From Elusimicrobiota bacterium (GTDB lineage Bacteria; Elusimicrobiota; Elusimicrobia; 2-02-FULL-39-32): a DNA stretch of 64,000 bases. The DNA lies in the NCBI GenBank assembly GCA_021730935.1, contig JAKFYJ010000011.1, positions 3,401-67,400 of the forward strand, written 5' to 3'. Below are positions 27,330 through 64,000 of the stretch, piece after piece. Each line of letters begins with the position of its first letter. Position 1 is the stretch's first letter. The notes beneath the pieces were generated by a model. The model ran no database searches, was not told the origin of the DNA, and worked only from the letters and a program-made list of their open reading frames with translations. The position numbers and the translations under genes are program-made.

Positions 27330-27365
27330 GTTAGTACCCTCCTTGTGGTTTAGTGTATCTTTGAA

Positions 27366-27417
27366 ATTAAAAAAACCTGACAAAAAATCACAACCCTCCT
27401 TGGCTGTGTTTGTCAGG
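27366..27417 (-). terminator. Terminator-like leader hairpin plus U7 upstream of the amtB SD (candidate attenuator)
   Basis: mRNA sense: CCUGACAAA-CACAGCC-AAGGAG-GGUUGUG-AUUU-UUUGUCAGG-UUUUUUU. A 9-bp outer stem and a 7-bp inner stem with a G-U pair, with an SD-like AAGGAG in the loop. About 35 nt further on comes the real SD and the ATG. Confidence 0.45.
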
Positions 27418-27636
27418 CGCCTTTGCCTTTTCGCGGAATGTCGTCACGTCCTTGTTTCGTGATTCCGGTCTATGTTTTTGGTTTTAAAATAAAAAATCCT
27501 CCTCGGCCGCGTCTGACCTTGGAGGACCTCAATGTCCTTGTGAAAACTGCGTCACAACAATGTGACTGCCAGTATTATATACCAACCGCCCAAAACTTGT
27601 CAAGCATTATTTATATTTTTTTTATATCATCTATGC

Positions 27637-36539: not shown

Positions 36540-37715
36540 ATGAGCCATGTCCAAATCGTTTCAGCGGCGCTGATCATCGTTTCAGGCGCGTTATTATACG
36601 CCAGGAATTCCTTCCGGCGGAGGCTGGAAGATCAGGCGCTCAATTTCAGCGCTCAGAGGGCGGATTTTGAGAGAGAAGTTTTCGCGCTCCGCATAAAGAA
36701 CGAGGAGTTTTCGGGAATCCTCAGGAGCATGGCGGAGCTGGTCATCGCTGTCGATCCTGAGGGCCGTATCCTTTATTTGAACCCGTCGGCGGAAAAAATA
36801 TTCCAGGTCAACAGCGGGGCGAGCATCGGGAAATCCTTTCTGGAAGTGATCCGTCAATCCACCGTGAGCGCTTTGATTTCACTGGCGCTCAAAGCGGGGG
36901 CAGAGGTTTCGGAGAGCATTCACCTCTTCCTTCCCGACGAGAAGTTTTTTGACGCGAAGGCGATCCCCCTCGTCGCCGACATGAAGACCCGCGGAGTGCT
37001 TTTGGTTTTGCATGATGTGACAGCCGTAAAAAAGCTTGAGGAAGTTCGCAAAGATTTTGTCGCCAATGTCTCGCATGAGCTCCGGACCCCTCTCACTTCC
37101 ATTCAGGGCTATGCCGAAACTTTGCTGGACGGGGCCCTTTCTGACGATAAAAATAACCGTGAATTCGTGCAGACGATCCATGACCAGGCCGAACGGCTCA
37201 GCCGGCTCGTGAACGATTTGCTGGATCTTTCCGCCATTGAATCCGGCAGAAAAACTCCGAAATCGGCGGATTTTATATTGAAGGATTTGATCGCTGAAGT
37301 CAAAAACTCCCTCTCGCCCCTCGCCAAAAAACGCGGAGTCAAAATAGACGCGGATATTCCCGAAAATCTTGTGTTCCGAGCCGATCGAGATCAAATCAAA
37401 CAGGTTCTGATCAATCTTGTGGACAACGCCGTGAAGTTCAATCGCAAGGGCGGAACGGTTTTTCTTTCAGCGTCGTCAAACGAATCCGGAACAACCCTCC
37501 AGGTGAAAGACAGCGGAAACGGAATTCCGGAATCGGATTTGCCGAGGATTTTTGAGAGGTTTTATCGCGTCGACAAAGGGCGTTCGCGCGAAGAAGGCGG
37601 GACGGGGCTGGGCCTGGCCATTGTGAAACATATCGTTGAAGCCCATGGCGGAACGGTGCGCGTTGAAAGCCTTTCCGGAGAAGGTTCGACATTTTTTGTG
37701 CATTTGCCAAAATGA
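36540..37715 (+). CDS. phoR: Sensor histidine kinase, PhoR-like (tentative)
   Basis: An N-terminal TM segment, a PAS-like region, an H-box FVANVSHELRTPLTSIQGY (very close to the E. coli PhoR H-box) and a HATPase domain. An extended -10 TGGTAAAAT ends 6 nt before the ATG, suggesting a possible leaderless transcript. Confidence 0.7.
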   Translation: MSHVQIVSAALIIVSGALLYARNSFRRRLEDQALNFSAQRADFEREVFALRIKNEEFSGILRSMAELVIAVDPEGRILYLNPSAEKIFQVNSGASIGKSFLEVIRQSTVSALISLALKAGAEVSESIHLFLPDEKFFDAKAIPLVADMKTRGVLLVLHDVTAVKKLEEVRKDFVANVSHELRTPLTSIQGYAETLLDGALSDDKNNREFVQTIHDQAERLSRLVNDLLDLSAIESGRKTPKSADFILKDLIAEVKNSLSPLAKKRGVKIDADIPENLVFRADRDQIKQVLINLVDNAVKFNRKGGTVFLSASSNESGTTLQVKDSGNGIPESDLPRIFERFYRVDKGRSREEGGTGLGLAIVKHIVEAHGGTVRVESLSGEGSTFFVHLPK

Positions 37716-45020: not shown

Positions 45021-45240
45021 AAGATTTTCTCCTCGACATAATAAAATTGATGGGTAAAGTTTATCTGATTCACGGACCCATGGACATGGCGGGCAATTAA
45101 AATCTGTTTGACGGTCTGTTGACAGGAGGGAATGAGGTTTGTCATATGGATGAAACACGGATTTTACATTCGGGGCATGTGTGGAAAGCCTTAAAGGTGG
45201 TATGATTGACAGGTATAATACACACAAGGTCATCGTCCTC

Positions 45241-47361: not shown

Positions 47362-48177
47362 AGTGCAGCGGTGATATTTGTCCAGGCTTTCGGTTTTCAG
47401 CCGGAAACTCCGAACCACTTTTCTGTCGAACTTAACCAAATCTTGCAGATGCCGGAGTTTGCTGAACAGGGAGCTGTTTTCGGCCTTGATCTCATTTTCA
47501 TATTCATAAAAAGTTGAAAGCGGATAGGGCCCCATGGGCGTGATGTGGAAAGCAGAAACGCGGTCGATGGACGGTTCCAAATAAGCTCCATCGCCCAGGT
47601 CCACCGAATATTTGTCCTTCTGATACAAACTGATGATGGGCGCTGAAGAAATTTTTCCGATGGTGTTTTCCCCCAGGTGCCTTTTCATCGATTGAACCAT
47701 CGCTTTCCCGGCATGCCGTTTCAGGATCATGGGGACGGAAGTCTTGGCAAAGTGGATGGCGTCATGATGGCTTTCTTCAAGCGAAATTCTCCGAAGAGCC
47801 GTTGAAGAAAACTCGGAACGGAAGAGCAGGTCGTTTTCTAAAAAACCCGGACCTTTATACTGCAGATAAACTTTTGATCCCCCCTTTTTGAACCGGAGGC
47901 GCAAGCTCGCTCCCAGACGGAAAAGATCCATTTTAGGCGTGTCCAAGAACTGGTCAAAAAAATAGGTTGTTTTAATGTGGCGGGTTTTTTTGCTTTCCGA
48001 GATGAATTCTTTGAGCCGCTCGACTTGCCCCGGGAGGATGCGCTTTTTGGATTCTATTTCGACGAAGCGCAAGTCATCGATCTTGAGCGCAGAATAAAGT
48101 TCCTCTCTCAATCCTTCAAAATTATTGATGTCCATGACTTTGAGGCCAGTATACAACATTTTTTGCGTGTCACTCAC
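47338..48177 (-). CDS. CYTH-like domain protein (putative triphosphate tunnel metalloenzyme)
   Basis: The ExExK signature lies in ...LRFVEIESKKRIL... Later acidic motifs are present. Its 3' end overlaps the ppk1 3' end by 24 bp (convergent). Confidence 0.4.
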   Translation of the reverse strand: MSDTQKMLYTGLKVMDINNFEGLREELYSALKIDDLRFVEIESKKRILPGQVERLKEFISESKKTRHIKTTYFFDQFLDTPKMDLFRLGASLRLRFKKGGSKVYLQYKGPGFLENDLLFRSEFSSTALRRISLEESHHDAIHFAKTSVPMILKRHAGKAMVQSMKRHLGENTIGKISSAPIISLYQKDKYSVDLGDGAYLEPSIDRVSAFHITPMGPYPLSTFYEYENEIKAENSSLFSKLRHLQDLVKFDRKVVRSFRLKTESLDKYHRCTSIFFGRR

Positions 48178-48234
48178 TTTTTACACGGAATTTACCCCGC
48201 GATCATGGGCATTTTTGTCTTCATGGCCTATAAT
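48169..48234 (+). promoter_or_regulatory. Phased Pho-box-like heptamer array plus a -10 TATAAT for the PlcP-like operon
   Basis: Heptamers at an 11-bp pitch: GTCACTC (48169), TTTACAC (48180), TTTACCC (48191), a weak ATCATGG (48202) and TTTTGTC (48213). A 9-bp gap follows, then TATAAT at 48229..48234. Confidence 0.5.
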
Positions 48235-48271
48235 CTTGCTTGTGAATAACCTGTGGATAACTAAAGAGAAG

Positions 48272-49069
48272 TTGTCATATGACGAGCCGGAAGGAAAACA
48301 CCGGTATCGTTCCATCTTCATTTCCGACACGCACATCGGGACTGCGGGATGCAAATCCGATTTCTTGCTGGACTTCCTGAAACACAACGAATCCAAATAT
48401 CTTTATCTGGTCGGCGATATCATCGATGGTTGGGAACTCAAAAAATCCTGGAATTGGATGCAGGACCACAACGACATCATTCAGAAAGTCCTCCGCAAAG
48501 CCCGGAAAGGGACGAAAGTATTTTATATCCCTGGCAACCACGACGAGTTCCTGCGGGATTATTTGGGACACAAGTTCGGCGGCATTTCCGTGCTTTATGA
48601 AACCGTTCACAGGACCGCCGACGGCAAAAACCTGCTCGTCCTCCATGGAGATAAGTTCGACGGGATCATCATGAACTCGCGCTGGCTCGCGGAGCTCGGG
48701 AGCACGGCCTACAACTTCACGATCTTCATAAACCGTTGGTTCAACGCGGCGCGCAGAAAGCTGGGATATCCTTATTGGTCCCTTTCGGCGTATCTTAAAC
48801 TCAAGGTCAAAAGCGCCGGCGGGTTCATTGAAAACTTTGAGCGGGCCCTTGTCCGCGAAGCCAAGCGGCGCGGGATGGACGGGGTTGTCTGCGGGCACAT
48901 CCATAAAGCCGACATGAAAATGATCGACGGCATCGAATATTTGAACGACGGGGACTGGGTGGAAAGCTGCACGGCTTTGGTGGAACACTTTGACGGGCGT
49001 CTCGAAATCATTCACTGGCACGACGCGGTTGCTCCCACTCTCATGATGGCCCGCGCTGGGACGAGATGA
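48272..49069 (+). CDS. Calcineurin-like metallophosphoesterase, LpxH/PlcP-like
   Basis: Motifs FISDTHIG, YLVGDIIDGW, GNHDE and CGHIH. The probable TTG start is at 48272, with an AAAGAGAAG SD-like sequence upstream (no in-frame ATG exists upstream of the motifs). The 3' end overlaps the next gene as ATGA. Confidence 0.6.
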   Translation: MSYDEPEGKHRYRSIFISDTHIGTAGCKSDFLLDFLKHNESKYLYLVGDIIDGWELKKSWNWMQDHNDIIQKVLRKARKGTKVFYIPGNHDEFLRDYLGHKFGGISVLYETVHRTADGKNLLVLHGDKFDGIIMNSRWLAELGSTAYNFTIFINRWFNAARRKLGYPYWSLSAYLKLKVKSAGGFIENFERALVREAKRRGMDGVVCGHIHKADMKMIDGIEYLNDGDWVESCTALVEHFDGRLEIIHWHDAVAPTLMMARAGTR

Positions 49070-50064
49070 ACATCGTTCTCGTTTCGGATGCCTGGACGCC
49101 CCAGGTGAACGGAGTTGTGACCACCTTGAGGACGGTCTCAAACCAGCTTGAAGTTTTGGGGCATTCCGTTTATGTCGTGAGCCCCGACCAATTCAAAACC
49201 ATCCCGTGCCCGACCTATCCCGAAATCCGTCTTGCTCTGAATCCGGGCAAAAAAATTTCCGATCTCATGGCGTCCTTGAGGCCCTCGGCGGTCCATATTG
49301 CGACCGAAGGGCCTCTGGGAATCGCCGCGAGGTCTTATTGCATAAAACAAAGGATTCCCTTCACGACGTCGTTCCACACGCGTTTCCCCGAATATATCGA
49401 GGCGCGGACCAGAATTCCCTCACAGTGGACATATCCCCTCGTGCGCTGGTTCCACGGAGCGGCGAGCCGCACAATGGTGGCGACCGACACTCTGGTGAGC
49501 GAACTTTCGGGCAGAGGATTCAGCAATGTCGTGCGCTGGTCCAGAGGCGTGGACACGGACCTTTTTCATCCCAGATCCAAGGACTTCCTGCAATTCCCCA
49601 GACCCATCTTCCTTTATGTGGGCCGCGTTTCAGTGGAAAAGAACATCAAATCATTTTTGAATCTGAATTTGAAAGGAACGAAGCTGGTGGTCGGAGACGG
49701 CCCGGATCTGCGGAAACTTAAATCAGAATATCCGGAGGTAAAATTTGTTGGAGCAAAATTCGGAGAAGAGCTGGCCCATCATTATGCCGCGAGCGACGTT
49801 TTTGTGTTCCCCAGCAAGACAGACACTTTTGGGCTGGTCCTCCTGGAAGCCATGGCCAGCGGGATTCCGGTTGCGGCCTATCCTGTCCCCGGCCCCAACG
49901 ATGTGGTCGGCAATTCCGGAGCTGGAATCTTGTCGGACAATCTCGAGCAGGCCGCAGTGGACTGTCTGAAAATCGATCCTCAAATCTGCCGCGATCACGC
50001 TCTCAAATTTTCCTGGGAAGCCTGTTCCAAACTTTTTCTGAGCCACCTTGAACCCATCCATTAA
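49066..50064 (+). CDS. Glycosyltransferase family 4 (GT-B, retaining), Agt-like
   Basis: An N-terminal GT4 domain (NGVVTTLR...) and the C-terminal E-x7-E region (FVFPSKTDTFGLVLLEAMASGIPV). Confidence 0.7.
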   Translation: MNIVLVSDAWTPQVNGVVTTLRTVSNQLEVLGHSVYVVSPDQFKTIPCPTYPEIRLALNPGKKISDLMASLRPSAVHIATEGPLGIAARSYCIKQRIPFTTSFHTRFPEYIEARTRIPSQWTYPLVRWFHGAASRTMVATDTLVSELSGRGFSNVVRWSRGVDTDLFHPRSKDFLQFPRPIFLYVGRVSVEKNIKSFLNLNLKGTKLVVGDGPDLRKLKSEYPEVKFVGAKFGEELAHHYAASDVFVFPSKTDTFGLVLLEAMASGIPVAAYPVPGPNDVVGNSGAGILSDNLEQAAVDCLKIDPQICRDHALKFSWEACSKLFLSHLEPIH

Positions 50065-51175
50065 CATCCTTATTTTATACGCGTCCGTCGGAGAAGGCCA
50101 CCGAAGCGCCGCGCTCGCCGTTCAATCCGCCATGAAGGAGGCCCGCCCCGATGCTTATGTGGATTGCCTGGACGTCCTGCAGTTCGCTCGCCCCATTTTT
50201 AAGAAAATATATTCCGGAGGCTATGTTTCGCTCCTGCAGCGAGCGCCTTCGCTTGTGGCCTCTCTTTATGAAAACTTCGACCAAAACCGTCCCGGAGATT
50301 CCATCCTCGACTGCGTGAGGCTGTTTCTGGAAGAATCCGGGCTCCCTGAATTTGAGGAATTTCTTCAAAGCCGGCGTTATGACCTCATCATCAACACTCA
50401 TTTTTTGCCGACCGAAATTGTGGCGGCCCTTAAAAAGCGGGAAAAAATTTCCGTTCCTCAAGTGACGGTCACCACGGATTTCATGACGCACAAGCTCTGG
50501 GTGCATGAACCCTGCGAGCATTATTTTACGGCGACAGCGGAGGGTGCGGAACATTTGGAAACTTTTGGGGTCCCTAAAAATAAAATTACTCCTGCCGGAA
50601 TTCCCATCCGCCCTGGCTTTCACCCCAACGGCTTGGTGAAAAATGACCGGCCTTCGATCTTGGTCATCGGCGGCGGACTTGGACTGGGTCCCATTTTGGA
50701 CATTTATCGAAAACTCCTCGAGATTGAAACGCCTCTCACCCTTCAGGTGGTGGCGGGCCGAAACGAACAGGTCAAATCCGATCTTGAAAAGTTCCCAGTC
50801 CCTCCGCGGCATCAATCTTGCATTTATGGGTTCACCGAAAAAATGCCCGAACTCATGAGCCATGCGGACATCATCCTGACCAAACCCGGCGGGCTGAGCG
50901 TTTCCGAAGCCCTCGCTTCCGGCGCCGTGATCTGCGTCGTAAACCCCTTCCCCGGCCAGGAAGATTTCAACGCAGGATTTCTCATCCGCAATGAAGCCGG
51001 CATCTCGATCAAAGACACGAATTTAATCCCCGACGAAATTTCAGCGCTATTAAATAATAAAAATAAGGTTGAGATCATGAAGAAAAACTCCCATAATCTA
51101 TCCAAACCCCATGCCGCAAGAACCATCGCAGAAAAATCTCTGGAGTTTGTCGCCGCCCATGAAAAGAGAAATTAA
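50048..51175 (+). CDS. Diacylglycerol glycosyltransferase, MGDG-synthase/UgtP-like (GT28)
   Basis: N-terminus INILILYASVGEGHRSAALAV, the GT28 N-terminal signature. TTG start at 50048. Overlaps the previous gene. Confidence 0.6.
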   Translation: MNPSINILILYASVGEGHRSAALAVQSAMKEARPDAYVDCLDVLQFARPIFKKIYSGGYVSLLQRAPSLVASLYENFDQNRPGDSILDCVRLFLEESGLPEFEEFLQSRRYDLIINTHFLPTEIVAALKKREKISVPQVTVTTDFMTHKLWVHEPCEHYFTATAEGAEHLETFGVPKNKITPAGIPIRPGFHPNGLVKNDRPSILVIGGGLGLGPILDIYRKLLEIETPLTLQVVAGRNEQVKSDLEKFPVPPRHQSCIYGFTEKMPELMSHADIILTKPGGLSVSEALASGAVICVVNPFPGQEDFNAGFLIRNEAGISIKDTNLIPDEISALLNNKNKVEIMKKNSHNLSKPHAARTIAEKSLEFVAAHEKRN

Positions 51176-51725
51176 GCGGAAGCTCTTTCATGCTCTCTCG
51201 CTCGTCTATGCCGCGGGCTATTATTATCTCGGCAAGGAATCGGTGCTGAAAATACTCGTGCCTGCGATCGTGATCGTGGGGATTGTGGAGTCCTCCCGCC
51301 TTCTTTTTCCCAAACTGAATCAGGCCATCATGCCTCTTTTCGGCGGCATTCAGCGCGAGTCCGAAATGACCCGCTTCTCCGGCATCTTTTGGACTCTTTT
51401 GGGATGCATCCTCACCATTTGGATTTTTAAAGATCCCAGGATTATCCTCTGCTCGCTTGGATATTTGGTTTTCGCGGACGCGGCGGCGGCTCTCGTCGGA
51501 GTGCCGCTTGGACGCCATAAATTTTTCGGCAAGAGCATGGAAGGAAGCCTGGCATGTTTTACGGCCAGTCTTTTGGTGGGTTTGGTGTTTTTGAATCCTT
51601 TATGGGCCGTTTCCGCCGCATTTTTCGTCACGGCGGTGGAGCTCGCGCCCCTCCCCTGGAACGACAATTTATGGATTCCCACCCTCTCGGGCTGTTTCTT
51701 GACTCTAAAAAGTATTATTCTATAA
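51159..51725 (+). CDS. CTP-transferase-like integral membrane protein (CdsA / phytol-dolichol kinase family)
   Basis: MKREIKRKLFHALSL...ADAAAALVGVPLGRHKF..GKSMEGSLACF, the family's C-terminal signature. Multiple TM segments. The start overlaps the previous gene. Confidence 0.45.
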   Translation: MKREIKRKLFHALSLVYAAGYYYLGKESVLKILVPAIVIVGIVESSRLLFPKLNQAIMPLFGGIQRESEMTRFSGIFWTLLGCILTIWIFKDPRIILCSLGYLVFADAAAALVGVPLGRHKFFGKSMEGSLACFTASLLVGLVFLNPLWAVSAAFFVTAVELAPLPWNDNLWIPTLSGCFLTLKSIIL

Positions 51726-51727
51726 CC

Positions 51728-52411
51728 ATGCTGAAAGAAAAAGTCCTCATCGTTGAAGACGAAAAAGAAATTTCCAAGCTCCTGAAATATAACCTCGAAA
51801 AAGAGGGGTATCAGGTTTTTGCCGCGACCGACGGAGAAGCGGGGCTTGCCCTCGCGAAATCCAAACATCCCGACATGATCATTCTGGACCTCATGCTCCC
51901 CAAACTTTCCGGTATCGAAGTCTGCAAGATGATCCGCAAAGATTCCCAGGTGCCCATCATCATGCTCACAGCCAAAAAAGAAGAGACGGACCGCGTTCTG
52001 GGCTTGGAACTCGGCGCCGACGATTATGTGACCAAACCTTTCAGTGTCCGGGAACTCCTGGCCAGGATAAAATCCCTTTTCCGCAGGTCCAAAGAAAAAA
52101 CGAGCGACGCGAAAGTCGTGCGCGCCGGAAAGTTGGAAGTGGACCTGGAACGATATGAAGTGAAACTCGCGGATAAGCTCGTTGAGCTTTCTTCCAAAGA
52201 ATTTACATTCCTCAAAGTCCTCCTCTCCGCCCAGGGCAAGGTGCTCACTCGCGATCAGCTTCTGGAATCAGTCTGGGGCTATGATCAGGCCTCTGAAATC
52301 GACACGCGCACCGTCGATCAGCATGTGGCGCGCCTGCGCGTCAAGCTCGGCTCGGAAGCGTCCCGCCTCGCCACCGTCAAAAACATCGGCTACAAATTCA
52401 AGATTAACTAA
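51728..52411 (+). CDS. phoB: OmpR/PhoB-family response regulator (tentative PhoB)
   Basis: A receiver domain (VLIVEDE...DLMLP...TAKKEETD) plus a winged-helix domain (TVDQHVARLRVKLG...IGYKF). It is similar to E. coli PhoB throughout. The real start is the ATG at 51728. Confidence 0.7.
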   Translation: MLKEKVLIVEDEKEISKLLKYNLEKEGYQVFAATDGEAGLALAKSKHPDMIILDLMLPKLSGIEVCKMIRKDSQVPIIMLTAKKEETDRVLGLELGADDYVTKPFSVRELLARIKSLFRRSKEKTSDAKVVRAGKLEVDLERYEVKLADKLVELSSKEFTFLKVLLSAQGKVLTRDQLLESVWGYDQASEIDTRTVDQHVARLRVKLGSEASRLATVKNIGYKFKIN

Positions 52412-52419
52412 AAAAATCC

Positions 52420-52448
52420 GTCACGGGACTTTCACACCCATTTTACTT
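52420..52448 (+). promoter_or_regulatory. Phased Pho-box-like heptamer array upstream of giant gene B
   Basis: GTCACGG (52420), 4 bp, TTCACAC (52431), 4 bp, TTTACTT (52442). The 7-4-7-4-7 geometry matches the arrays at pstS and the PlcP-like gene. Confidence 0.45.
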
Positions 52449-52499
52449 CGCTTCAATGGGTTTTCGGCCCGCAGTGAGATAAGATGAACGCCATAACTT

Positions 52500-55400: not shown

Positions 55401-58124
55401 CGCCTCGGCATGACGCGCGTGAGCAATTACCGCCAGTTGTCAGGATACGGTCTTCCCGTCGGAGGACACCGCACGCGGTTTAAGCATCTGATGGAGGGAT
55501 TCATCCGGCCTTTCGCCTGGATGGTCCAAAAATTTTGGGGTTTCAGTTTCGGGATGTTCGTGGTCAGGAAACAATTTTTCGGAGCCGAAGGAAATGATGG
55601 GCGGTTTTGGAAAAAACTTTTCGGCGAAGGGCACCTTTCCGCCATGCTGAATGCCGGAAACGAGGTGGAGCCTTCATTATATCCCGAGGCGAAAAACATA
55701 AAAAAAGTCCTGTTCGAGGAAATGCGCCATTTGAACATCCAAACGGCGGAATTCGACAACGAATTGACCTGGCCCTGGCGAAAAATCATGACCCGCATTT
55801 TCGGTCTTTCTTTCGTGGTTCTGCTTCTGGATGTTTCGGTCTATGGTTTCAACTGGCTCGTTTATGGGGCCCCTTTCACTTATACGCTTTCCAGCGCCAT
55901 CATTTCCGCGGGGCGCGCAGTGCTTTTCTCCATTTTTATGTCCTGGTCATTCATTTTGTTCGGGATGAGAGACAGTTTTTATGCCGCTGAAAGCAAGAAA
56001 CTGAAATCTCTTGAAAACCGCATTTCGGAAGCCGAACAGAGGGTCAGCGAAAGTTCGCCCTCGGGAGGGAAAACATTGCTTCAGTCAGAATATTTGCGGA
56101 CTTTGTCGTCTGCGGATAAGGAAAAATCGATGTCGGCACCCTCGGCGGACATCATCCTTCTCGTCACTCCTCCCGGGCGGACAGAATCCGCGGAACTGCG
56201 CGGCATTCTGGAAGGCAGAGGCAAAGGATTGTTGCGGCAGGATGTCCCCGTGATCACTCTTCCCAGCCAGCGCGAAGGGAGCGGGATGGGATATCTCAAC
56301 TCCATGCAATACCTTCATTCTCCGGAATTTGAAATGGAAAGATCGAAACATCCCCATTTGCGGGGCCGGAGCCTGGACGATCTCCGAGTCCTTGTCTTGT
56401 TGGCGGATGAACCCTCAGTCAAGTCCGCGGCCACTCCGCTTTCCCTCCCCTTTCTGGACCGCGCGATTACGCCGCTCGAATTTTCACTTCTGAACGGATA
56501 CAAAGCCTGCCAGGCGATGTCGGGCGAGCGCAGGGGCGGCGTGGCCGTCATGTTCTCTGATGAGCTTTTCATCAGCCCCATCCAGGTCCAGAACGGGATC
56601 ACGCTCTTGACGTCCTGGGTCGGTTATAAAGACCTGGTCGACCAGAACATGGACCTGATGGTCGTGGACCGCTCTTTCCGTCGAGTGCAGAAATTTTATC
56701 CCAACGCCATCAGCGAGGATCCAATGCACATGAAGAACCGGGTGGAGCGCCAGGCGGTCACGGCGAGGTATGACCTCTCCAATCCTGTCAAAAAGCAGAT
56801 GATCGCTTTTACGGGCGGATTTGTCGCGTCTTTTGCCGATGCCAGCGCCGCTGAAAGTTTTTATTCCGCGAATGAGCGGATCCGCCGGCAGGTCAACGAC
56901 AGAAGGCGCCGCAGTTATCCGATCGATCTCGAGAGCCACCTCCTGGCTCCCATGGTGATCGCCTCAAACAGGGAAGATGTTTATAGCTATCTTGCCAAAC
57001 ACAGGAACGGAAGGCCTTTGGCCCTGAAAAGTCGGGAATGGGCTTTTTTCAGCGGGCTTATGCAGGCGGTGGAACAGAGCCAGGGCATTGAGGTCAACGC
57101 CTCGGTTCCCTATCCCACACAGTCCGCCTTTTATTTTACCCGCACCAAGGAAGGCGTGCCTTATTATGACGACGCGCAAATCGCTCAGCTCTGGAAAGAC
57201 CTCGGCGTTGCTGACGAATTTCGTTCGTCGTCTGTTCAGGATGATTCTAAACCGTCACAATTTTCAAAATTTGGAGATCAATTCCGCGTTATTGCGGTTC
57301 GCACGGCTGTTTTAATCCTTTTCGTCTTCTCCAATGTTCCCCCCGTTTCCCGTTGGTCTGCGAGCCGCCTCGAAGCCATTGCCGTCAGACCGGAGTTCAA
57401 TTTGCTCCAGCCTGAAACCCGCTCTCAAGTCAGGATAAAAATTCTCGGATCCCGAGCCCGTTCCGGTCCCGTAAACGGGGCAGGCCTTGTAGACCGCCAT
57501 TTTGAAAAACTATTGAATGTTTTGAGTGCTGAAAGGTCCGGAACGCTCAGTCCGGGATATTTCGTCGTGAACCTCAACGGCCTCCTGAACCGGACGGAGC
57601 AGGGATTCGAATTCAGGGAAGAGTTGTCGGATATCCTGACCCGTCTGGACGGAAGGATGTCTCAAAATTCCGATTTGGATCAGGGGTCGGGTTTTGTTTT
57701 CATCAGCGATCAGCCCAGAGAACAAATAGAAGAACTGGCGGCGAGCCTTGGGGTGTCTGCGGGGCACATTCGGATCATCGCTCCGACAGCGCAGTCGGCT
57801 GAACATGAAATCCGCATTAAAAACGGATCCGTAAAATCGGTCCTTTCATGCCGTGAGCCCGGAACAATAAATGAAATGAAAAAAATATTCAAAAACGCGG
57901 ACGCCCTCCTCCTCACACCGTTTTTCGCTGAGATCGATCACGATTATACGGTTCACGGCGGCGCGGCATCAGAAATATACAAGGGATTGGAACAGGAAGG
58001 GCTGATTTCGGACCGGGTTCATTATTCCCCGAAGGACCAAACCCTCATCCTGGAGGGAAGGGCCGCGGAAACAGACCTTTCCCTGAGGCTCCGGCGCGTC
58101 CGATATGTGCGCATCCAGGCATGA
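52500..58124 (+). CDS. Giant polytopic membrane protein B (1874 aa) with an N-terminal ChaN/Tiki-like domain; paralog of giant A
   Basis: Signal peptide MIRRLLLACYVFAMTAPPYAEA. ChaN-like motifs: LHIQDAHNH ... RGEEYFAILHP ... IHGVEDPDLY ... AILIAGGYHTEG. Many hydrophobic segments are spread over the remaining ~1300 aa, with large soluble regions of unknown family. Confidence 0.75.
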   Translation: MIRRLLLACYVFAMTAPPYAEASFWSERKAATERMHQSGRQIRRILPLESEVQNPVSDLGFSIPESVGTVVESWTEGSPQLPVILHIQDAHNHFAAQKNLARVLNAVAETSADKTALSDPLPVYVEGAWTRIETAFLGAFPDERLREKSAQTLLKKNRIRGEEYFAILHPGAIAIHGVEDPDLYQANVTARDSARSSLDARISEINSERALISQAKMEIYPPSLRELDLVREKVDAQQNTLKDLLRLVIKTCPKTWAKDAFPELKKFLDAAVFEDQVSSKGLEGERAAVQKILSENLTGSQASDFLNLCLQFRLGKVSSRVFHSRLASMARAFSIHVPNLDNLVQGLNQSGNIGYDKIEKELDELMISASAELIESQVRPELRQRANEIYGKDRTLSFNAKCLKWQVSSNEWHRRRNEIESINQGQVKFMAESYYDLALRRDRAMVENLSRCIKPGTRSAILIAGGYHTEGITELLKAKGFRYLVIRPSLQIESGESSAEGLSSLQAWDDLKSAYAGALEKILSQDKEALSVREAVDVLKTLDLSVPVLIDGKPYALGHSPFLSPSSFAWPLTGRGMDGNYAKSGTKKIYGHTLRSMSAFNSMGSPARLLPEFFAAMLQNGGESMEDLRVLEDLLHDGMTLELPEGSHGAAGGIIKLLSKVRFVPGLMNIAHNGSLRITIKRDRLPETMVTPASIFYPYRKAVLEKRLPKPQSWAKKTAMFLGELKVTAVWETVLFRILPVLMFQQGGSIHSQGWTAGALTLLTLFPLSHSIVSWRVHESEIKGRSAVKPRYMANLFVHLGISLFLLVPFFQFSLVPAAAVSLGTQMLLDFAIDGALDNHKNDNRHYSQAMPYQEKELPSTLEVTNPDLVKWREILNSPAPLGRKECMAILNIAKAVINNNFIRPRTLVRYLHEVGRTNRQLTILSRVTADRLILQVENGSLDPDLAHDLVRYARELKKFAGYSLIYRLGMTRVSNYRQLSGYGLPVGGHRTRFKHLMEGFIRPFAWMVQKFWGFSFGMFVVRKQFFGAEGNDGRFWKKLFGEGHLSAMLNAGNEVEPSLYPEAKNIKKVLFEEMRHLNIQTAEFDNELTWPWRKIMTRIFGLSFVVLLLDVSVYGFNWLVYGAPFTYTLSSAIISAGRAVLFSIFMSWSFILFGMRDSFYAAESKKLKSLENRISEAEQRVSESSPSGGKTLLQSEYLRTLSSADKEKSMSAPSADIILLVTPPGRTESAELRGILEGRGKGLLRQDVPVITLPSQREGSGMGYLNSMQYLHSPEFEMERSKHPHLRGRSLDDLRVLVLLADEPSVKSAATPLSLPFLDRAITPLEFSLLNGYKACQAMSGERRGGVAVMFSDELFISPIQVQNGITLLTSWVGYKDLVDQNMDLMVVDRSFRRVQKFYPNAISEDPMHMKNRVERQAVTARYDLSNPVKKQMIAFTGGFVASFADASAAESFYSANERIRRQVNDRRRRSYPIDLESHLLAPMVIASNREDVYSYLAKHRNGRPLALKSREWAFFSGLMQAVEQSQGIEVNASVPYPTQSAFYFTRTKEGVPYYDDAQIAQLWKDLGVADEFRSSSVQDDSKPSQFSKFGDQFRVIAVRTAVLILFVFSNVPPVSRWSASRLEAIAVRPEFNLLQPETRSQVRIKILGSRARSGPVNGAGLVDRHFEKLLNVLSAERSGTLSPGYFVVNLNGLLNRTEQGFEFREELSDILTRLDGRMSQNSDLDQGSGFVFISDQPREQIEELAASLGVSAGHIRIIAPTAQSAEHEIRIKNGSVKSVLSCREPGTINEMKKIFKNADALLLTPFFAEIDHDYTVHGGAASEIYKGLEQEGLISDRVHYSPKDQTLILEGRAAETDLSLRLRRVRYVRIQA

Positions 58125-58208
58125 TCTGTCATGCTGATGTCATACAGACTTTACTTTCGCGCTATGGGTCAGCAGTCTGGATTCAAATAAAATAACGGGA
58201 GATTAAAT

Positions 58209-58421
58209 ATGGAACAGCTCTATATGAATGAGTCCGGCGATTTAAAAGTCTCGATGGGTTCCATCCAGACGGACCTTGCGATGGCGTTCCTCAGAGAACA
58301 ACACACTCTGATCAACGAGCTCATCGGCAGTTTGGAAAAAGAATCGATTTCAAGAAATGTTTTTTGCCAAAAGGTTTTTACAATTGAAAACGGTTTGAAG
58401 CGCTTAAGATCGGTTCTGTAA
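58209..58421 (+). CDS. Small hypothetical protein (70 aa)
   Basis: A good SD GGGAGA lies 6 nt before the ATG. No recognisable family. Confidence 0.35.
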   Translation: MEQLYMNESGDLKVSMGSIQTDLAMAFLREQHTLINELIGSLEKESISRNVFCQKVFTIENGLKRLRSVL

Positions 58422-58628
58422 GAAAAATTTTCGCATCAAAAACAAAACAAAAACATAACATCCCTTTTTGGGGACATGCATCTGAACGAATTGCAACTGG
58501 GGCGGGCACTTGGTCCTCCTTGTTGCTCGCTCCAGAACTTTGAGAGTCAACGAATCAGCATGGCCGCAAAGGAGGACAGCGGAGCCGAGGAACGGTTCCG
58601 CGCACATCATAAGGAGGACACACACGAC

Positions 58629-59810
58629 ATGAAGCTCAAACAAGGACTCACCAGCATCATTATGGCGGCCGCAGTCATGGCCTGCCTGGTCGCGCCCAAA
58701 GCGCAAGCGGACGACACATCCGCCAACATCAGCATCGGCAAAATGGTCAGCAACCTGAAGATCTCGGGAGACATCCGCGTCCGCCAGGACAGCATGTGGC
58801 AATATAGCCCCGGCGCCGTGGACCGCTCCAGACAGCGCATCCGTTTCCGTTTGGGAATCGCTCCCCAGATTCAGGACATCACGGTTTTCTTCCGTATGGG
58901 AACCGGGACAGGTGAACAGACCTCCACCAACCAGAGCTTTGACAACGGCTTCACTTTGAAACAGATCTGGGTTGACCAGGCCTATCTTCAATGGAAAGCG
59001 TTTGAATGGCTCAAACTCTCCGGCGGTAAAATGCAGAACCCCATCTGGAGGACCTATGCCTCCGACCTCGCCTGGGACGACGACTTGAACCCGGAAGGTT
59101 TCGCGGAACAATTCGACGTCACGATCAATGACCGGTTCGGTTTCTTCGCGAATTTCGGACAGTTCCCCTTGGACGAAGATTCCACCAACAACCGCGACCA
59201 GTGGATGTTTGCCAACCAGATCGGTTTGAAATCCAAGATCATGGAAGAAACGAAATGGACCAACGCCGTTAACTTCAACTATTTCAAGGACGAAGCGGCG
59301 AACGATTGGGCTCATGTTGCCGCCGGAGGCGTGGCTCAGCAAGGGAATTCCCGGGTGTCCGGAACCACCACAGGCGCGCTTCGCAGCAGTTTCACCGTCG
59401 TGGGCGTCACTTCCGAAATCAACACCCGCCTCTGGAAATGGCCTCTCGCCATCCAGGCGGATTATTTGATCAACGAACAGGACAATTCCGCTCTCGGAAG
59501 CCTCGCCTCTGAAGCCAAGATCGGATATCAGGTCGGGTTCCAGCTCAACAAAGCGGCCGCGGCAAAGTCTTGGGAAGCGGCATATTATTTTAAATATTCC
59601 GAGTCCAACGCCACTCCTGCGGACCTCGCGGACTCCGATTTCGGCGGCGGCGGCACCAACCGGCGCGGACACATCTGGTGGCTGGCTTATGCTCCCAGAG
59701 ATTATGTGGTCCTCAAAGCCAAATTCCTCTGCACGGAAAATCTTGAACCCCAGCTGAACGCGGCCAACTCGATCAACCGCATGCAGATCGATGTGGCGGT
59801 CAAGTTCTAA
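58629..59810 (+). CDS. Outer-membrane porin, putatively phosphate-selective (OprO/OprP-like) by context
   Basis: The real start is the ATG at 58629 after SD AAGGAGGA. Signal peptide MKLKQGLTSIIMAAAVMACLVAPKAQA. A beta-barrel with a terminal Phe (...DVAVKF). It lies immediately upstream of pstS. Confidence 0.55.
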   Translation: MKLKQGLTSIIMAAAVMACLVAPKAQADDTSANISIGKMVSNLKISGDIRVRQDSMWQYSPGAVDRSRQRIRFRLGIAPQIQDITVFFRMGTGTGEQTSTNQSFDNGFTLKQIWVDQAYLQWKAFEWLKLSGGKMQNPIWRTYASDLAWDDDLNPEGFAEQFDVTINDRFGFFANFGQFPLDEDSTNNRDQWMFANQIGLKSKIMEETKWTNAVNFNYFKDEAANDWAHVAAGGVAQQGNSRVSGTTTGALRSSFTVVGVTSEINTRLWKWPLAIQADYLINEQDNSALGSLASEAKIGYQVGFQLNKAAAAKSWEAAYYFKYSESNATPADLADSDFGGGGTNRRGHIWWLAYAPRDYVVLKAKFLCTENLEPQLNAANSINRMQIDVAVKF

Positions 59811-59823
59811 TCGTCAAACAGCG

Positions 59824-59852
59824 TTTACACGGGCGTCACACGGTTGTCACAT
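59824..59852 (+). promoter_or_regulatory. Pho-box-like array upstream of pstS
   Basis: TTTACAC, gggc, GTCACAC, ggtt, GTCACAT: three heptamers with 4-bp spacers. TAAAAT at 59861..59866 lies 8 bp downstream. Confidence 0.5.
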
Positions 59853-59872
59853 TGAACAGTTAAAATGGAGGT

Positions 59873-60895
59873 ATGACACAAATGAACAAAATTAAATTCT
59901 TAGGCTTGGCCGCAGTCATGGCAATCTCTTCGGTTGCCGCAAAAGCGGACATGCTGATCAACGGAGCGGGAGCCACTTTCCCTTATCCGATCTACTCAAA
60001 ATGGTTTGACGAATATCACAAAATCAAACCTGAATACAAGTTCAACTATCAGTCCATCGGCTCGGGCGGCGGCATCCGCCAGGTCTCTGCAGGCACCGTT
60101 GATTTCGGCGCCAGCGACGGACCCATGACCGATGACCAGATGGCGGCGGCCCCGGGATATCTTTATCATATCCCCACCGTTTTGGGCGCCGTTGCCGTGA
60201 CCTATAATCTCGAAGGCGTGACCACTCAGCTGAAATTCTCCGGCAAAACCATCGCCGGAATTTTCCTGGGCGACATCAAGACCTGGGACGATCCCATGAT
60301 CAAAAAGGATAACCCCGGCGTTGAGCTTCCGACACAGCCCATCGTGGTCGTCCACCGTTCCGACGGTTCCGGCACCACCTATATCTTCGTGGATTATCTC
60401 ACGAAGGTGAGCTCGGACTGGTCCACCAAGGTCGGCAAAGGCACTTCCGTCAACTGGCCCATCGGTTTGGGCGGAAAAGGCAACGAAGGCGTGGCGGGAT
60501 TGATCAAACAAACCCCCAACTCCATCGGATATGCCGAGCTTATTTATGCCAAACAGAACAAGCTCGCTTATGGCCTGGTCGTGAACAAGGCAGGAAAAGC
60601 GATTGAGCCTTCCATCGAGTCCGTTTCCGCCGCGGCCCGCACCAAGATGCCTTCGGATTTCAGGGTTTCCATCACCAACTCCCCTGATGCCGAAGCCTAT
60701 CCCATCTCCGGCTTCACCTGGCTTCTTGTTTATAAGAAGCAGAAAGACGCGGCGAAAGGCCAGGCGATCGTGGGTTTCCTGAACTGGATGCTCGCAGATG
60801 GCCAGAAATTCGCTTCTGATCTGGGATATGCTCCTCTCCCCAAAGAAGTCAATGCTCTGGTTCAAAACACCGTCAAAAAAATTGAGGTAAAATAA
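59873..60895 (+). CDS. pstS: Phosphate ABC transporter substrate-binding protein
   Basis: Signal peptide. Motifs GAGATFPYPIYSKW and SIGSGGG. SD GGAGGT. Confidence 0.9.
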   Translation: MTQMNKIKFLGLAAVMAISSVAAKADMLINGAGATFPYPIYSKWFDEYHKIKPEYKFNYQSIGSGGGIRQVSAGTVDFGASDGPMTDDQMAAAPGYLYHIPTVLGAVAVTYNLEGVTTQLKFSGKTIAGIFLGDIKTWDDPMIKKDNPGVELPTQPIVVVHRSDGSGTTYIFVDYLTKVSSDWSTKVGKGTSVNWPIGLGGKGNEGVAGLIKQTPNSIGYAELIYAKQNKLAYGLVVNKAGKAIEPSIESVSAAARTKMPSDFRVSITNSPDAEAYPISGFTWLLVYKKQKDAAKGQAIVGFLNWMLADGQKFASDLGYAPLPKEVNALVQNTVKKIEVK

Positions 60896-60896
60896 A

Positions 60897-61772
60897 TTGA
60901 AACAGAGGAGTTGGGGCGATGCCATTTTCAAAAACATTACCCTCTTCTTCTCTCTGTCAATCTTCGTTCTGACTGCATGGATCGGGTGGGAGCTTTATAA
61001 GAACTCTCACCTGTCCATGCAGAAGTTCGGATTCAGCTTCCTCTGGAGCCAGGTCTGGGACCCTGTCCAGGAACAATACGGCGCTCTCCCCTTCGTCTTC
61101 GGAACTCTCGTTTCATCGTTTCTCGCCATTGCCATCGCTCTCCCCCTCGGTCTTGGCGTCGCCATTTTTCTTTATGAACTCGCGCCACCCAAAATTGGAA
61201 ATGTCATTGCTTTCCTCACAGAACTTCTTGCCGCCATCCCGAGCGTGGTTTATGGTTTGATCGGTGTTTTCGTTCTCGTCCCCATCATGCGGAAAGCCGG
61301 CGCGCCCTATGGCGTGGGCATGCTGACCGCGAGCATTGTTTTGGCCGTCATGATTTTGCCCTTCATCGCCACCATTTCCCGCGAAATTTTTAAAACCGTT
61401 CCGCAAACCCTCAAAGAATCCGCCATGGCTCTGGGCGCGACAAGGTGGGAAGTTTTAAAACTCATCACCATCCCCTTTTCCTTTTCAGGCATATTGGGCT
61501 CCGTGTTTCTGGCTCTCGGCCGCGCTCTCGGCGAAACCATGGCCGTCACCATGGTGATCGGCAACCGTCCGGAAATAAAATGGTCGCTTTTTGAACCCGG
61601 ATACACCATGGCCGCTGTCATCGCCAATGAGTTCACAGAGGCGACGTCCGATTTATATGTTCAGACCCTCATTCAGGTTGGGCTCGTCCTTTTCGGAATC
61701 ACGATCATCGTGAACGGCATCGCGCGTCTTCTGATCTATAAAGTGTCCCAGAAAGGCGAGGTCGTGGCATGA
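60897..61772 (+). CDS. pstC: Phosphate ABC transporter permease
   Basis: Six TM segments. The EAA-like loop is present. Confidence 0.9.
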   Translation: MKQRSWGDAIFKNITLFFSLSIFVLTAWIGWELYKNSHLSMQKFGFSFLWSQVWDPVQEQYGALPFVFGTLVSSFLAIAIALPLGLGVAIFLYELAPPKIGNVIAFLTELLAAIPSVVYGLIGVFVLVPIMRKAGAPYGVGMLTASIVLAVMILPFIATISREIFKTVPQTLKESAMALGATRWEVLKLITIPFSFSGILGSVFLALGRALGETMAVTMVIGNRPEIKWSLFEPGYTMAAVIANEFTEATSDLYVQTLIQVGLVLFGITIIVNGIARLLIYKVSQKGEVVA

Positions 61773-62647
61773 CCACGGCAACAATCCCCGTTCATAACCC
61801 ATTCGAAATTAACATGTCTCTTTACAGGAGACGGCAGTTCATGAACCTGCTCGCTTTCATCCTGACAGGCCTCTGCGCCGCGGTCACGATTTCCATTTTA
61901 CTGTTCATCCTCGGCTATATCACATATCACGGCTTTTCCAGCTTAAACTGGAATTTCTTTACACAGCTTCCCAAACCCGTCGGAGAAACAGGCGGCGGCA
62001 TGGCGAACGCTATCGTTGGAACCTTCAAGCTTCTGGGCTTGGCCAGCGTCATTGGAGTTCCAGTTGGATTTTTGGGCGGGGTATATCTTTCCGAGTTCGG
62101 TCACAACAAAATCGGATTTTTGGTGCGATATGCCGCGGACATTTTGAACGGCGTTCCCTCGATAGTGATGGGCATTTTTGCTTATACGGTGGTGGTCCTT
62201 CCCATGGGTCATTTTTCTGCTGTGGCAGGCGGCTTCGCCTTGGGCGTCATGATGATCCCGATTGCGGTCCGGAGCACGGAAGAATTTTTGAGGGTCGTCC
62301 CCCACAGTGTGCGCGAGTCCGGCTTGGCGCTTGGCCTGCCCGAATGGAAAGTGATTCTTTTTATTGTGATCCCCACCGCCGCCAAGGGATTGATCACGGG
62401 GATTCTTCTGGACCTTTCTCGGGTCGCCGGCGAAACAGCACCATTGATTTTCACAGCGTTCAGCAACCGTTATTGGGCCAAGGGTTGGCTGGAACCCATC
62501 GCGTCTTTGCCCGTCATGATTTTCACCTATGCGATTTCGCCATATGATGATTGGCACCGCCAGGCCTGGGCCGCGGCTCTTGTTCTCATGATGCTGGTCC
62601 TCTGCACGGGGCTTACCGCAAGAATATTATTGAGAGAGAAACATTGA
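61769..62647 (+). CDS. pstA: Phosphate ABC transporter permease
   Basis: TM permease. Overlaps pstC by 4 bp. Confidence 0.9.
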
Positions 62648-62657
62648 GGATCCCAAG

Positions 62658-63500
62658 ATGCTTGAATTAGCCATCGGAAAAAATGTTGAATTGAAGGAAC
62701 AGGAAAACCCTATGGACAGAATAACAACGGAAGAAACAAAAATCGTTGAAAAGAACGCGATCGAGGTCAAAAACCTCAATGCCTATTTTGGTGCTTTCCG
62801 CGCCATCAAGGACATTTCCCTCAACATGCTGGACAAGAAAGTGACCGCGCTCATCGGCCCTTCCGGTTGCGGCAAATCCACTTTCATCCGATGCTTAAAC
62901 CGCATGCATGAAGTCACTCCCGGTGCCAGGATCGAAGGCGACGTTTTGATCAACGGCGAAAATGTCCTGCGCAAAGACCCTGTCCTTCTCCGCAGAAACG
63001 TCGGCATGGTTTTTCAAAAACCCCAGCCCTTTCCTTCAATGTCCATCTTTGACAATGTCGCGGCTGGGCTTCGGCTCAACGGCATCAGGTCCCGCTCTAT
63101 CCTTGCGGAAGAAGTTGAAAAGAGTCTCAAGGCTGCCGCGCTCTGGGATGAAGTCAAAGATCATCTGGATAAACTTGGAACATCTCTCTCAGGCGGACAA
63201 CAACAGCGACTCTGCATCGCGCGCGCTCTCGCCATCCGTCCCAGCATCCTTCTTCTCGACGAACCCTGTTCCGCTCTTGACCCCATCTCGACAGCCAAGA
63301 TCGAAGAACTGATTTTGGAACTGAAGGAAAAATACACCATCATTATCGTCACGCACAACATGCAGCAGGCGGCCCGCGTCTCAGATCACACGGCTTTCCT
63401 CCTGCTTGGAGAAATGATTGAATATGGCGTGACCTCAAAAATGTTCACCAATCCAGGCAACAAAAAAACCGAGGATTACATCACGGGAAGGTTCGGATAA
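62658..63500 (+). CDS. pstB: Phosphate ABC transporter ATP-binding protein
   Basis: Walker [10 protein letters not shown], the ABC signature LSGGQQQR, and Walker B ILLLDEP. Confidence 0.9.
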
Positions 63501-63505
63501 AATTT

Positions 63506-64000
63506 ATGAAAAGACACGTTGAAGAAGAAATCAATCTTTTAAAAGAAATGTTGCTCCGCATGGGCGGGCTTGCGGAAGAAATGATCCACCTGTCCATGAA
63601 GGGTTTCATCGACCGCACCGACGCGTTTGCCCAGCAGGTGTTTGACCGCGAAGATCAGGTGAACACGCTCCAGATTGACGTGGACCAGACCTGCAGCAAG
63701 ATCCTGGCTCTTTATCAGCCGGAAGCTTCCGATCTCCGCACGATCATTGCCGCCATGAAGATCAATTCCGAGCTTGAGCGAGTGGCGGACCAGGCCGTCA
63801 ACATCACCCAGACCTGCACCTATCACCTCTTTAAAGAAACGCCCGTCAAATCCCTTATGGAAATTCCCCGCATGGCCCAGATTGCTCAGGAAATGGTCAA
63901 GGAAAGTCTGGACGCATTCTCCAAAAGGGACGTCGATCTGGCTCAGGACGTTTTAAAGAAGGACGAGGAAGAAGACACTCTCAAATCCAAGGCCTTGAAC
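63506..64000 (+). CDS. phoU: Phosphate signalling regulator PhoU (partial; runs off the window end)
   Basis: Hand translation from the ATG at 63506 gives MKRHVEEEINLLKEMLLRMGGLAEEMIHLSMKGFIDRTDAFAQQVFDREDQVNTLQIDVDQTCSKILALYQPEASDLRTIIAAMKINSELERVADQAVNI... It is absent from the ORF track because no stop codon falls in the window. Confidence 0.8.
   Translation, partial: MKRHVEEEINLLKEMLLRMGGLAEEMIHLSMKGFIDRTDAFAQQVFDREDQVNTLQIDVDQTCSKILALYQPEASDLRTIIAAMKINSELERVADQAVNITQTCTYHLFKETPVKSLMEIPRMAQIAQEMVKESLDAFSKRDVDLAQDVLKKDEEEDTLKSKALN

Follow-up and report, generated by a model that had tools for sequence, protein, structure and literature searches.

Phased 11-bp direct repeats at six promoters of an Elusimicrobiota phosphate gene cluster are probable Pho boxes of a PhoB-type response regulator

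We analyzed a 64,000-nucleotide stretch of DNA (positions 3,401 to 67,400 of contig JAKFYJ010000011.1, assembly GCA_021730935.1; the window) that PstS homologues place in an Elusimicrobiota metagenome-assembled genome. Within a single phosphate (Pho) gene cluster of the window, six promoters carry four-unit arrays of direct repeats at an exact 11-bp pitch, preceding giant gene A, ppk1, an operon for a PlcP-like phosphoesterase and glycosyltransferases, giant gene B, a small open reading frame (ORF) with a porin gene, and pstS (Table 1). The arrays are nonrandom, conserved across the lineage, and similar to the Escherichia coli PhoB site. All six are intergenic and oriented toward Pho-type genes, and arrays upstream of pstS, porin, ppk1, or PlcP genes are likewise found in related loci (L003, L007, L010, L014, L015, L019, and L022). 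Reading the sequence together with its gene context, we consider it highly probable that the repeats are tandem Pho boxes for the OmpR/PhoB-family regulator encoded in the window, with a PhoR/PnpS-type histidine kinase as its likely partner and PstSCAB-PhoU as the sensor input.

Three of these promoters had been singled out in an earlier reading of the same DNA (the original prediction), which described an organism-specific Pho-box candidate built of phased heptamers. Every heptamer it listed is present as written, at pstS, at the PlcP operon (48169, 48180, 48191, 48202, and 48213), and at giant gene B (52420, 52431, and 52442). Counting both strands, the 64 kb contain 331 copies of the core [GT]T[CT]AC. 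Triples of this core at the 11-bp pitch (KTYAC-N6-KTYAC-N6-KTYAC) were found at the three claimed sites only, against 0.01 expected; none of 100 shuffles reached three, and the remaining pitches between 7 and 17 gave no triple anywhere in the 64 kb. When the core was relaxed to admit GTCAT as well, five triples were observed against 0.01 expected. The count of three promoters holds for strict triples, with six promoters in all: the array at 58128-58167 and the minus-strand array at 45123-45084 had been missed. The pair upstream of ppk1, described as 12-bp spaced, in fact has a pitch of 11 bp and is preceded by a further unit, GTCATAT.

Because an 11-column matrix was trained on sites of related genomes only (retrieved via PstS and PlcP homologues) and then run over the window, circularity was avoided. 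This matrix returned six hits scoring at least 20 at pitch 11, compared with 0.015 in 200 dinucleotide shuffles, and none at pitches 7 to 10 and 12 to 16, where the maximum was 15.8. In the reverse test, a window-trained matrix applied to about 107 kb of related loci gave matches at pitch 11 only; each is on the strand of the gene that follows it and precedes pstS, a porin gene, PlcP, or a small ORF. A motif-only scan of 185,579 genomes gave 10 matches, with about 9 estimated by chance; both Elusimicrobia matches were examined and both lie in a Pho context, and the scan yielded a further Elusimicrobia locus (L022) in which the array is again upstream of porin-pstS. That relaxed patterns can strike low-complexity DNA is illustrated by AT-rich matches at 15716 and 17714 on the minus strand, which would favor a compositional artefact of short T/C-rich intergenic words. 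However, these matches score only 4.7 by the matrix, three to six arrays were observed where 0.01 to 0.02 were expected, the signal is specific to 11 bp, and the arrays are conserved across lineages. Chance is therefore excluded as the origin of the arrays, and we assign that explanation a negligible probability.

The pstS array has the top matrix score of the window (30.0) and is kept in six other Elusimicrobiota lineages, with PstS proteins about 75 to 87% identical and genomes of 53 to 62% GC, while the flanks diverge. The porin-pstS gap of each of these six lineages contains four phased units followed by TAnnnT 8 bp after the last heptamer. Across the seven pstS promoters, the invariant columns are GTCA in unit 1, T.AC in unit 2, GTCAC in unit 3, TGTCA.AT in unit 4, and TA...T. 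Since GTCA of unit 1 is invariant across lineages, the array starts one unit earlier than first reported, with GTCAAAC, so that pstS has four units and not three. The reported distance of 8 bp to TAAAAT was verified, and TAnnnT stands at one offset in all seven lineages, in the forms TAAAAT, TACAAT, TATTCT, TAGAAT, and TAACAT. A PhoB box is expected to place its proximal repeat about 10 bp upstream of the -10, and at pstS we find GTCAC, 10 bp, and TAAAAT; the -10 hexamers given here are predictions.

A count matrix of 58 Elusimicrobiota units reads GTCACnC-nGcT, or cTGTCAC when started two bases earlier. The heptamer sequence had been thought to differ from that of E. coli; because the unit in the shifted register reads like the E. 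coli CTGTCAT/C, this difference is largely a register artefact, and GTCAT itself occurs in the units at 58128 and 58139. What does differ is the G/C-rich spacers, a fixed TTTAC unit, and the frame shared by the other five promoters. For comparison we used an 81-base E. coli pstS promoter that matches 5,423 of 5,426 genomes over at least 80% of its length, every record at no less than 95% identity, and lies directly upstream of annotated pstS. It reads CTGTCAT-AAAA-CTGTCAT-ATTC-CTTACAT-ATAA-CTGTCAC-CTGTTTGTCC-TATTTT, that is, four 11-bp units in which the final GTCAC is followed after 10 bp by the -10. The local matrix scores this locus best at the known boxes and in the known register. Taken together, the statistics, the cross-lineage conservation, and the gene context support reading the repeats as Pho boxes. 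Conservation of the motif across the lineage, in genomes of 52 to 68% GC, also means that it is not organism-specific.

The original prediction of one geometry with E. coli architecture stands for the 11-bp pitch at every array and for the E. coli frame at pstS (class I). The other five promoters share a different, 20-bp frame (class II): GTCAy, N6, a variable unit, N6, TTTAC, N6, nnnATGk, 20 to 21 bp, and TAnnnT. We aligned 12 class II promoters, five from the window and seven from relatives, which precede non-orthologous genes. Conservation in this alignment is limited to the unit cores, the unit-4 ATG, and the -10; the other columns diverge, in genomes of 52 to 68% GC. The composite pattern TTTAM-N9-ATGK-N20/21-TANNNT has five matches in the window, where 0.02 would be expected. 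At pstS the units begin at about -60, -49, -38, and -27, and in class II at about -72, -61, -50, and -39, which puts TTTAC at about -50 in both. The PlcP array is kept upstream of PlcP in L015/L017 (GTCATGC, TTGACTC, TTTACCC, ATCATGG) and in L019; ATCATGG at 48202, dismissed earlier as weak, is a conserved element, identical in L015. Orthologues of the array tcTGTCATgctgaTGTCATacagacTTTACTTtcgcGCTATGGG at 58128-58167, which lies immediately past the giant B stop, were found between a regulator or kinase gene and the porin gene in L003, L007, L010, L019, and L022. The regulator-operon promoter of L010 is a canonical TTGACT-N17-TATCAT, which supports TAnnnT as the local -10; no array was detected upstream of the regulator operons of L003 and L010. 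A fifth heptamer proposed at the PlcP operon (TTTTGTC, 48213) was rejected as a unit, L015 having GCGCGGT at that place.

Two other explanations of class II bear on how these columns are read. The frame may be a distinct lineage-specific activation architecture, in which the ATGG of the conserved nnnATGG(G) (about -39 to -33) is a sigma-region-4 contact or a second-factor site and not a degenerate PhoB half-site; we regard this as possible but doubtful. Alternatively, the likeness among class II promoters could stem from a single copied promoter cassette, carried for example with the inserted giant genes and PlcP operon, so that the repeats would be shared by descent and not each maintained by binding. 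The giant genes and the PlcP operon are indeed insertions relative to L003 and L010, each giant gene is preceded by a class II promoter, and inserted giant gene B has an array on either side (52420 and 58128), both of which resemble duplicates of an ancestral regulator-porin promoter. However, spacers and flanks differ among the five window copies, leaving only the unit cores, the unit-4 ATG, and the -10 conserved, and the same columns are kept in relatives of 52 to 68% GC; moreover, a functional promoter, once duplicated, remains a Pho box. Cassette copying may account for the class II promoters of the giant genes, but not for conservation confined to the motif columns, and as a general explanation it appears very improbable compared with Pho boxes maintained by binding.

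The presumed binder of these boxes is the regulator encoded directly downstream of the PlcP operon. Among solved structures, its closest relative is RegX3, a phosphate regulator of mycobacteria, and the DNA-binding domain of E. coli PhoB matches that of the regulator at an E value of about 6e-9. Orthologues in L003, L007, L010, and L015 are 73 to 88% identical; their recognition helix, TRT[VI]DQHVARLR, is essentially invariant, and the wing, ATVK[NS]IGYKF, is nearly so, with one conservative N/S change. This near-invariance fits the invariant core of the DNA motif. The regulator gene is embedded in the Pho cluster of every relative, next to porin-pstSCAB-phoU, and adjoins a HAMP-PAS-HisKA (PhoR-type) kinase gene in L007, L010, and L015; the window kinase is 55 to 62% identical to the regulator-adjacent kinases of relatives. 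Thus, this context strongly suggests membership in the PhoB family, which the family score by itself does not give. In addition, the regulator has two extra residues in its loop from the conserved W-G to T-R-T (WGYDQASEIDTRT) compared with its best solved relatives. The corresponding loop contacts sigma-70 in E. coli PhoB (PMC3348028), and its greater length could be related to the unusual class II spacing.

Several observations weigh against assigning the arrays to a PhoB-type switch. The regulator scores 243 bits against the curated cutoff of 296.2 for PhoB TIGR02154, with RpaB and YycF scoring almost equally, and its DNA-binding domain is closest to solved chains labeled only "OmpR family regulator." One further strong array (27534-27566) lies in a nitrogen-assimilation cluster, between an ammonium transporter gene and a CitMHS-type permease gene, and no -10 was found at either class offset from it. 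These three points would also be expected if the arrays were real operators of another OmpR-family regulator or signal (WalR/YycF-, RpaB-, or GlnR-like, which likewise involve 11-bp direct repeats) and the neighboring regulator were not the binder or not responsive to phosphate. However, all but one of the seven arrays stand in front of classic Pho genes within a single cluster, every relative has the regulator in its Pho cluster, beside a kinase that passes the PnpS threshold and nearly that of PhoR, and the core equals the PhoB core TGTCAC; we therefore consider control by a different regulator unlikely. The nitrogen-cluster array could be a sign of cross-talk between phosphate and nitrogen control, like that described for Streptomyces PhoP at amtB and glnA (PMC4415409), or could equally be the site of another factor.

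Other adverse points concern the promoters themselves. Class II promoters lack the canonical 10-bp spacing; their degenerate fourth unit is separated from the -10 by 20 bp (22 bp from the 5-bp core). An A/T-rich 4-bp spacer, the place of wing and minor-groove contact, is not seen, unit positions 8 to 11 being 59% G+C with G at position 9 in 39 of 58 units. One relative (L013, PstS 72% identical) has no array, and its porin-pstS gap measures only 18 bp. The scan of the source genome covers these 64 kb. Finally, the pstS -10 abuts GGAGG (59867-59871), as it also does in L010, so that a transcript from that -10 would lack the Shine-Dalgarno sequence. Transcription of pstS would be expected to begin at about 59873, on the A of an in-frame ATG (TAAAAT-GGAGGT-ATG), upstream of the called start at 59882, which gives a PstS protein of 337 amino acids (aa). 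We speculate that the internal pstS promoter may produce a leaderless mRNA, the Shine-Dalgarno sequence being used only by read-through from the porin promoter. Gaps between -10 and start are also short at PlcP (TATAAT, 7 nucleotides [nt], annotated GTG; 48229-48244) and in L015 (TATAAA, 8 nt, ATG; 3393-3403). These distances at pstS, PlcP, and L015 suggest leaderless or near-leaderless mRNAs in the lineage.

The mechanism that we infer for the Pho boxes is modeled on the mode of action of E. coli PhoB, with the neighboring regulator as binder, activation rather than repression as its effect, and phosphate as the signal. At low phosphate, the PhoR/PnpS-type kinase would phosphorylate the regulator, whose dimers would bind pairs of units head to tail, four units thus accommodating two dimers. 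Once bound, the dimers would bring in sigma-70 RNA polymerase at promoters with a -10 but without a TTGACA -35. In class I, 10 bp separate the proximal GTCAC from the -10, precisely the spacing of E. coli pstS, and in the class II frame the strong units would stand farther upstream by about one helical turn. The predicted regulon comprises the porin, pstSCAB-phoU, polyphosphate kinase, PlcP with two glycosyltransferases, two giant secreted-looking proteins, and probably the regulator itself. Since the regulator gene follows the PlcP operon without a gap, it is probably autoregulated, positively. The low-phosphate response predicted from this set would consist of phosphate import through the porin and Pst, polyphosphate kinase, an exchange of phospholipids for glycolipids by PlcP and the glycosyltransferases, and the two giant proteins.

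Table 1. Coordinates of repeat arrays, candidate promoter elements, and genes in the 64-kb window
Feature	Position	Strand	Details
pstS Pho-box array	59813..59852	+	Four 11-bp units: GTCAAAC (59813-59819), TTTACAC (59824), GTCACAC (59835), GTCACAT (59846)
pstS candidate -10 TAAAAT	59861..59866	+	8 bp past last heptamer, 10 bp past GTCAC
PlcP-operon array	48169..48208	+	GTCACTC, TTTACAC, TTTACCC, ATCATGG (48202); score 25.1
PlcP candidate -10 TATAAT	48229..48234	+	20 bp after ATCATGG; TATAAA at equal 20-bp offset in L015
PlcP composite match	48191-48234	+	
Giant gene B array	52420..52459	+	GTCACGG, TTCACAC, TTTACTT, TCAATGG; score 22.5; between regulator stop (52411) and giant B start (52500)
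Giant gene B candidate -10 TAAGAT	52480..52485	+	20 bp after fourth unit
Giant gene B composite match	52442-52485	+	
Small ORF/porin array	58128..58167	+	GTCATGC, GTCATAC, TTTACTT, GCTATGG; score 20.5; upstream of 70-aa ORF and porin
Small ORF/porin candidate -10 TAAAAT	58188..58193	+	20 bp after fourth unit; in composite match and class II alignment
Small ORF/porin composite match	58150-58193	+	
ppk1 array (weakest)	45141..45180	+	GTCATAT, GAAACAC (45152), TTTACAT (45163-45169), GGCATGT; score 14.9, alone not significant; has composite match
ppk1 candidate -10 TATGAT	45201..45206	+	20 bp after fourth unit
ppk1 composite match	45163-45206	+	
Giant gene A array	45084..45123	-	GTCAACA, GTCAAAC, TTTAATT, GCCATGT; score 13.9-16.1; has composite match
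Giant gene A candidate -10 TAAACT	45058..45063	-	20 bp after fourth unit
Giant gene A composite match	45101 to 45058	-	
Extra array	27534..27566	-	GTCACAT, GTGACGC, TTCACAA; score 23.8; contains palindrome GTCAC-N6-GTGAC
Ammonium transporter gene	25713-27383	-	
CitMHS-type permease gene	27634-29460	+	
OmpR/PhoB-family response regulator, presumed binder	51728..52411	+	NCBIfam best match PhoB TIGR02154
PhoR/PnpS-type histidine kinase	36540..37715	+	PnpS equivalog 406.6 bits vs 400 (passes); PhoR 328.5 vs 334.2 (narrow miss)
pstS-pstC-pstA-pstB-phoU	59882..64000	+	pstSCAB 59882-63500; phoU from 63506, running off window end
PlcP operon	48242..51725	+	PlcP-like metallophosphoesterase, GT4, MGDG/diglucosyl-DAG-synthase-like glycosyltransferase, 204-aa membrane protein; directly upstream of regulator gene
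ppk1	45241-47361	+	
Porin	58626-59810	+	
Giant gene A	38781 to ~45020	-	2079 aa, hydrophobic N-terminus
Giant gene B	52500-58124	+	1874 aa, hydrophobic N-terminus

The compact cluster of the relatives consists of a PhoR-type kinase gene, ppk1, a CYTH gene on the opposite strand, a gene for a membrane protein of about 200 aa, the OmpR/PhoB-family regulator gene, the porin gene, and pstSCAB-phoU. Some relatives add PhoU_div-PHO4, and L015 and L019 have the PlcP-glycosyltransferase operon within the same cluster. The PlcP-like protein of the window is 62 to 70% identical to alphaproteobacterial homologues; for the glycosyltransferase encoded at 50048-51175, a protein scan of genome contigs found no relative. 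Giant proteins A and B are paralogous (24% identical over about 515 residues), and neither has a significant Pfam domain. Their class II promoters suggest that both are phosphate regulated; if the class II frame is correct, it would bring two giant secreted-looking proteins without Pfam domains into the Pho regulon of this lineage.

Several smaller features were observed in and around the cluster. The first gene past the class II array at 58128-58167 and before the porin gene is a 70-aa ORF (58209-58421), homologous to ORFs of 63 to 64 aa at the same position in L007 and L019; a counterpart is absent from L003 and L010. The porin leader contains a conserved stem-loop, GGGGCGGGCA-CTTGGTCCTCCTTGT-TGCTCGCTCC, at 58499-58535 of the window, 8468-8506 of L007, 8873-8912 of L015, and 6323-6362 of L019. 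Its predicted stem has 11 pairs, three with compensatory changes, and its loop carries an invariant CCTCCTTGT complementary to the Shine-Dalgarno sequence GGAGG. No Rfam family matched at the porin leader, and the stem-loop could be a translational control element or a small RNA target. Just upstream of the 204-aa gene, window positions 51085-51115 (CATAATCTATCCAAACCCCATG) resemble the promoter-proximal region of the L003 orthologue (4205-4235, TTTAATCTATTCAAACCCCATG). These positions now fall within the 3' end of the inserted glycosyltransferase gene and may be what is left of the promoter that originally served the 204-aa gene and the regulator. Neither AT-rich match (15716 or 17714, both on the minus strand) has a promoter frame, and given their matrix score both were rejected as chance. 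AT-rich repeats at 15690-15740 on the minus strand (GTTACAT-TTTA-TTTACAT-TTTG-TTTAGAT) stand upstream of a 482-aa gene, a ShlB/FhaC-type transporter gene (12557-14158), and a 3361-aa giant gene (2460-12545); with a Pho matrix score of 4.7, they are probably unrelated to Pho or due to chance.

In the literature searched, no paper was found that combines "Pho box" with "Elusimicrobia." These predictions describe a known kind of switch, the PhoB-type operator, in a phylum where such a switch has not been described before, and they involve no new regulatory principle. For the uncultured phylum Elusimicrobiota they provide a first predicted Pho regulon, together with a cis-regulatory code that can be tested. 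With the matrix and the two promoter frames, phosphate-responsive genes can be annotated in metagenome-assembled genomes and metatranscriptomes can be interpreted.

Among known systems, E. coli PhoB offers the closest comparison. The window arrays resemble its Pho box in their 11-bp direct repeats (seven conserved and four less conserved positions), their TGTCAC/T core, and repeats pointing to the gene. At pstS the likeness extends to four units, a final GTCAC, 10 bp, and a -10 with no TTGACA -35, upstream of Pho genes in both organisms. In contrast, the window spacers are G/C-rich with a conserved G where those of E. coli are A/T-rich, a TTTAC variant unit is fixed at about -50, and five of the six window promoters are shifted about one helical turn upstream and carry a conserved nnnATGk. 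Bacillus subtilis PhoP boxes are TT(A/T/C)ACA repeats with an 11-bp period, typically in four or more phased units. The TTTACA units found here resemble the TTAACA/TTTACA of B. subtilis, as does the number of phased units, whereas the units here are mostly of the GTCAC type.

The PHO box has been defined as two 11-nt direct-repeat units with a species-dependent core, CTGTCAT in E. coli and GTTCACC in Streptomyces (PMC4415409). Streptomyces coelicolor PhoP operators are like those of the window in their G/C-richer 11-nt units, in unit number and quality that vary by promoter, giving simple and complex operators, and in possible cross-talk with the nitrogen genes amtB and glnA (PMC4415409, PMC2275107). 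They differ in their core (GTTCACC versus GTCACnC/TTTACnC here) and in phylum, and the sites here are predicted from sequence. Finally, predicted Pho boxes have been reported upstream of plcP-glycosyltransferase clusters in marine bacteria (PMC4796936). Like the plcP-agt lipid-remodeling clusters of marine Alphaproteobacteria and Flavobacteria, the window operon has a PlcP-family phosphoesterase gene followed by glycosyltransferase genes under a predicted PhoB site (PMC4796936); unlike them, the Elusimicrobiota operon lies inside a pst/ppk Pho cluster and has the regulator gene at its end.

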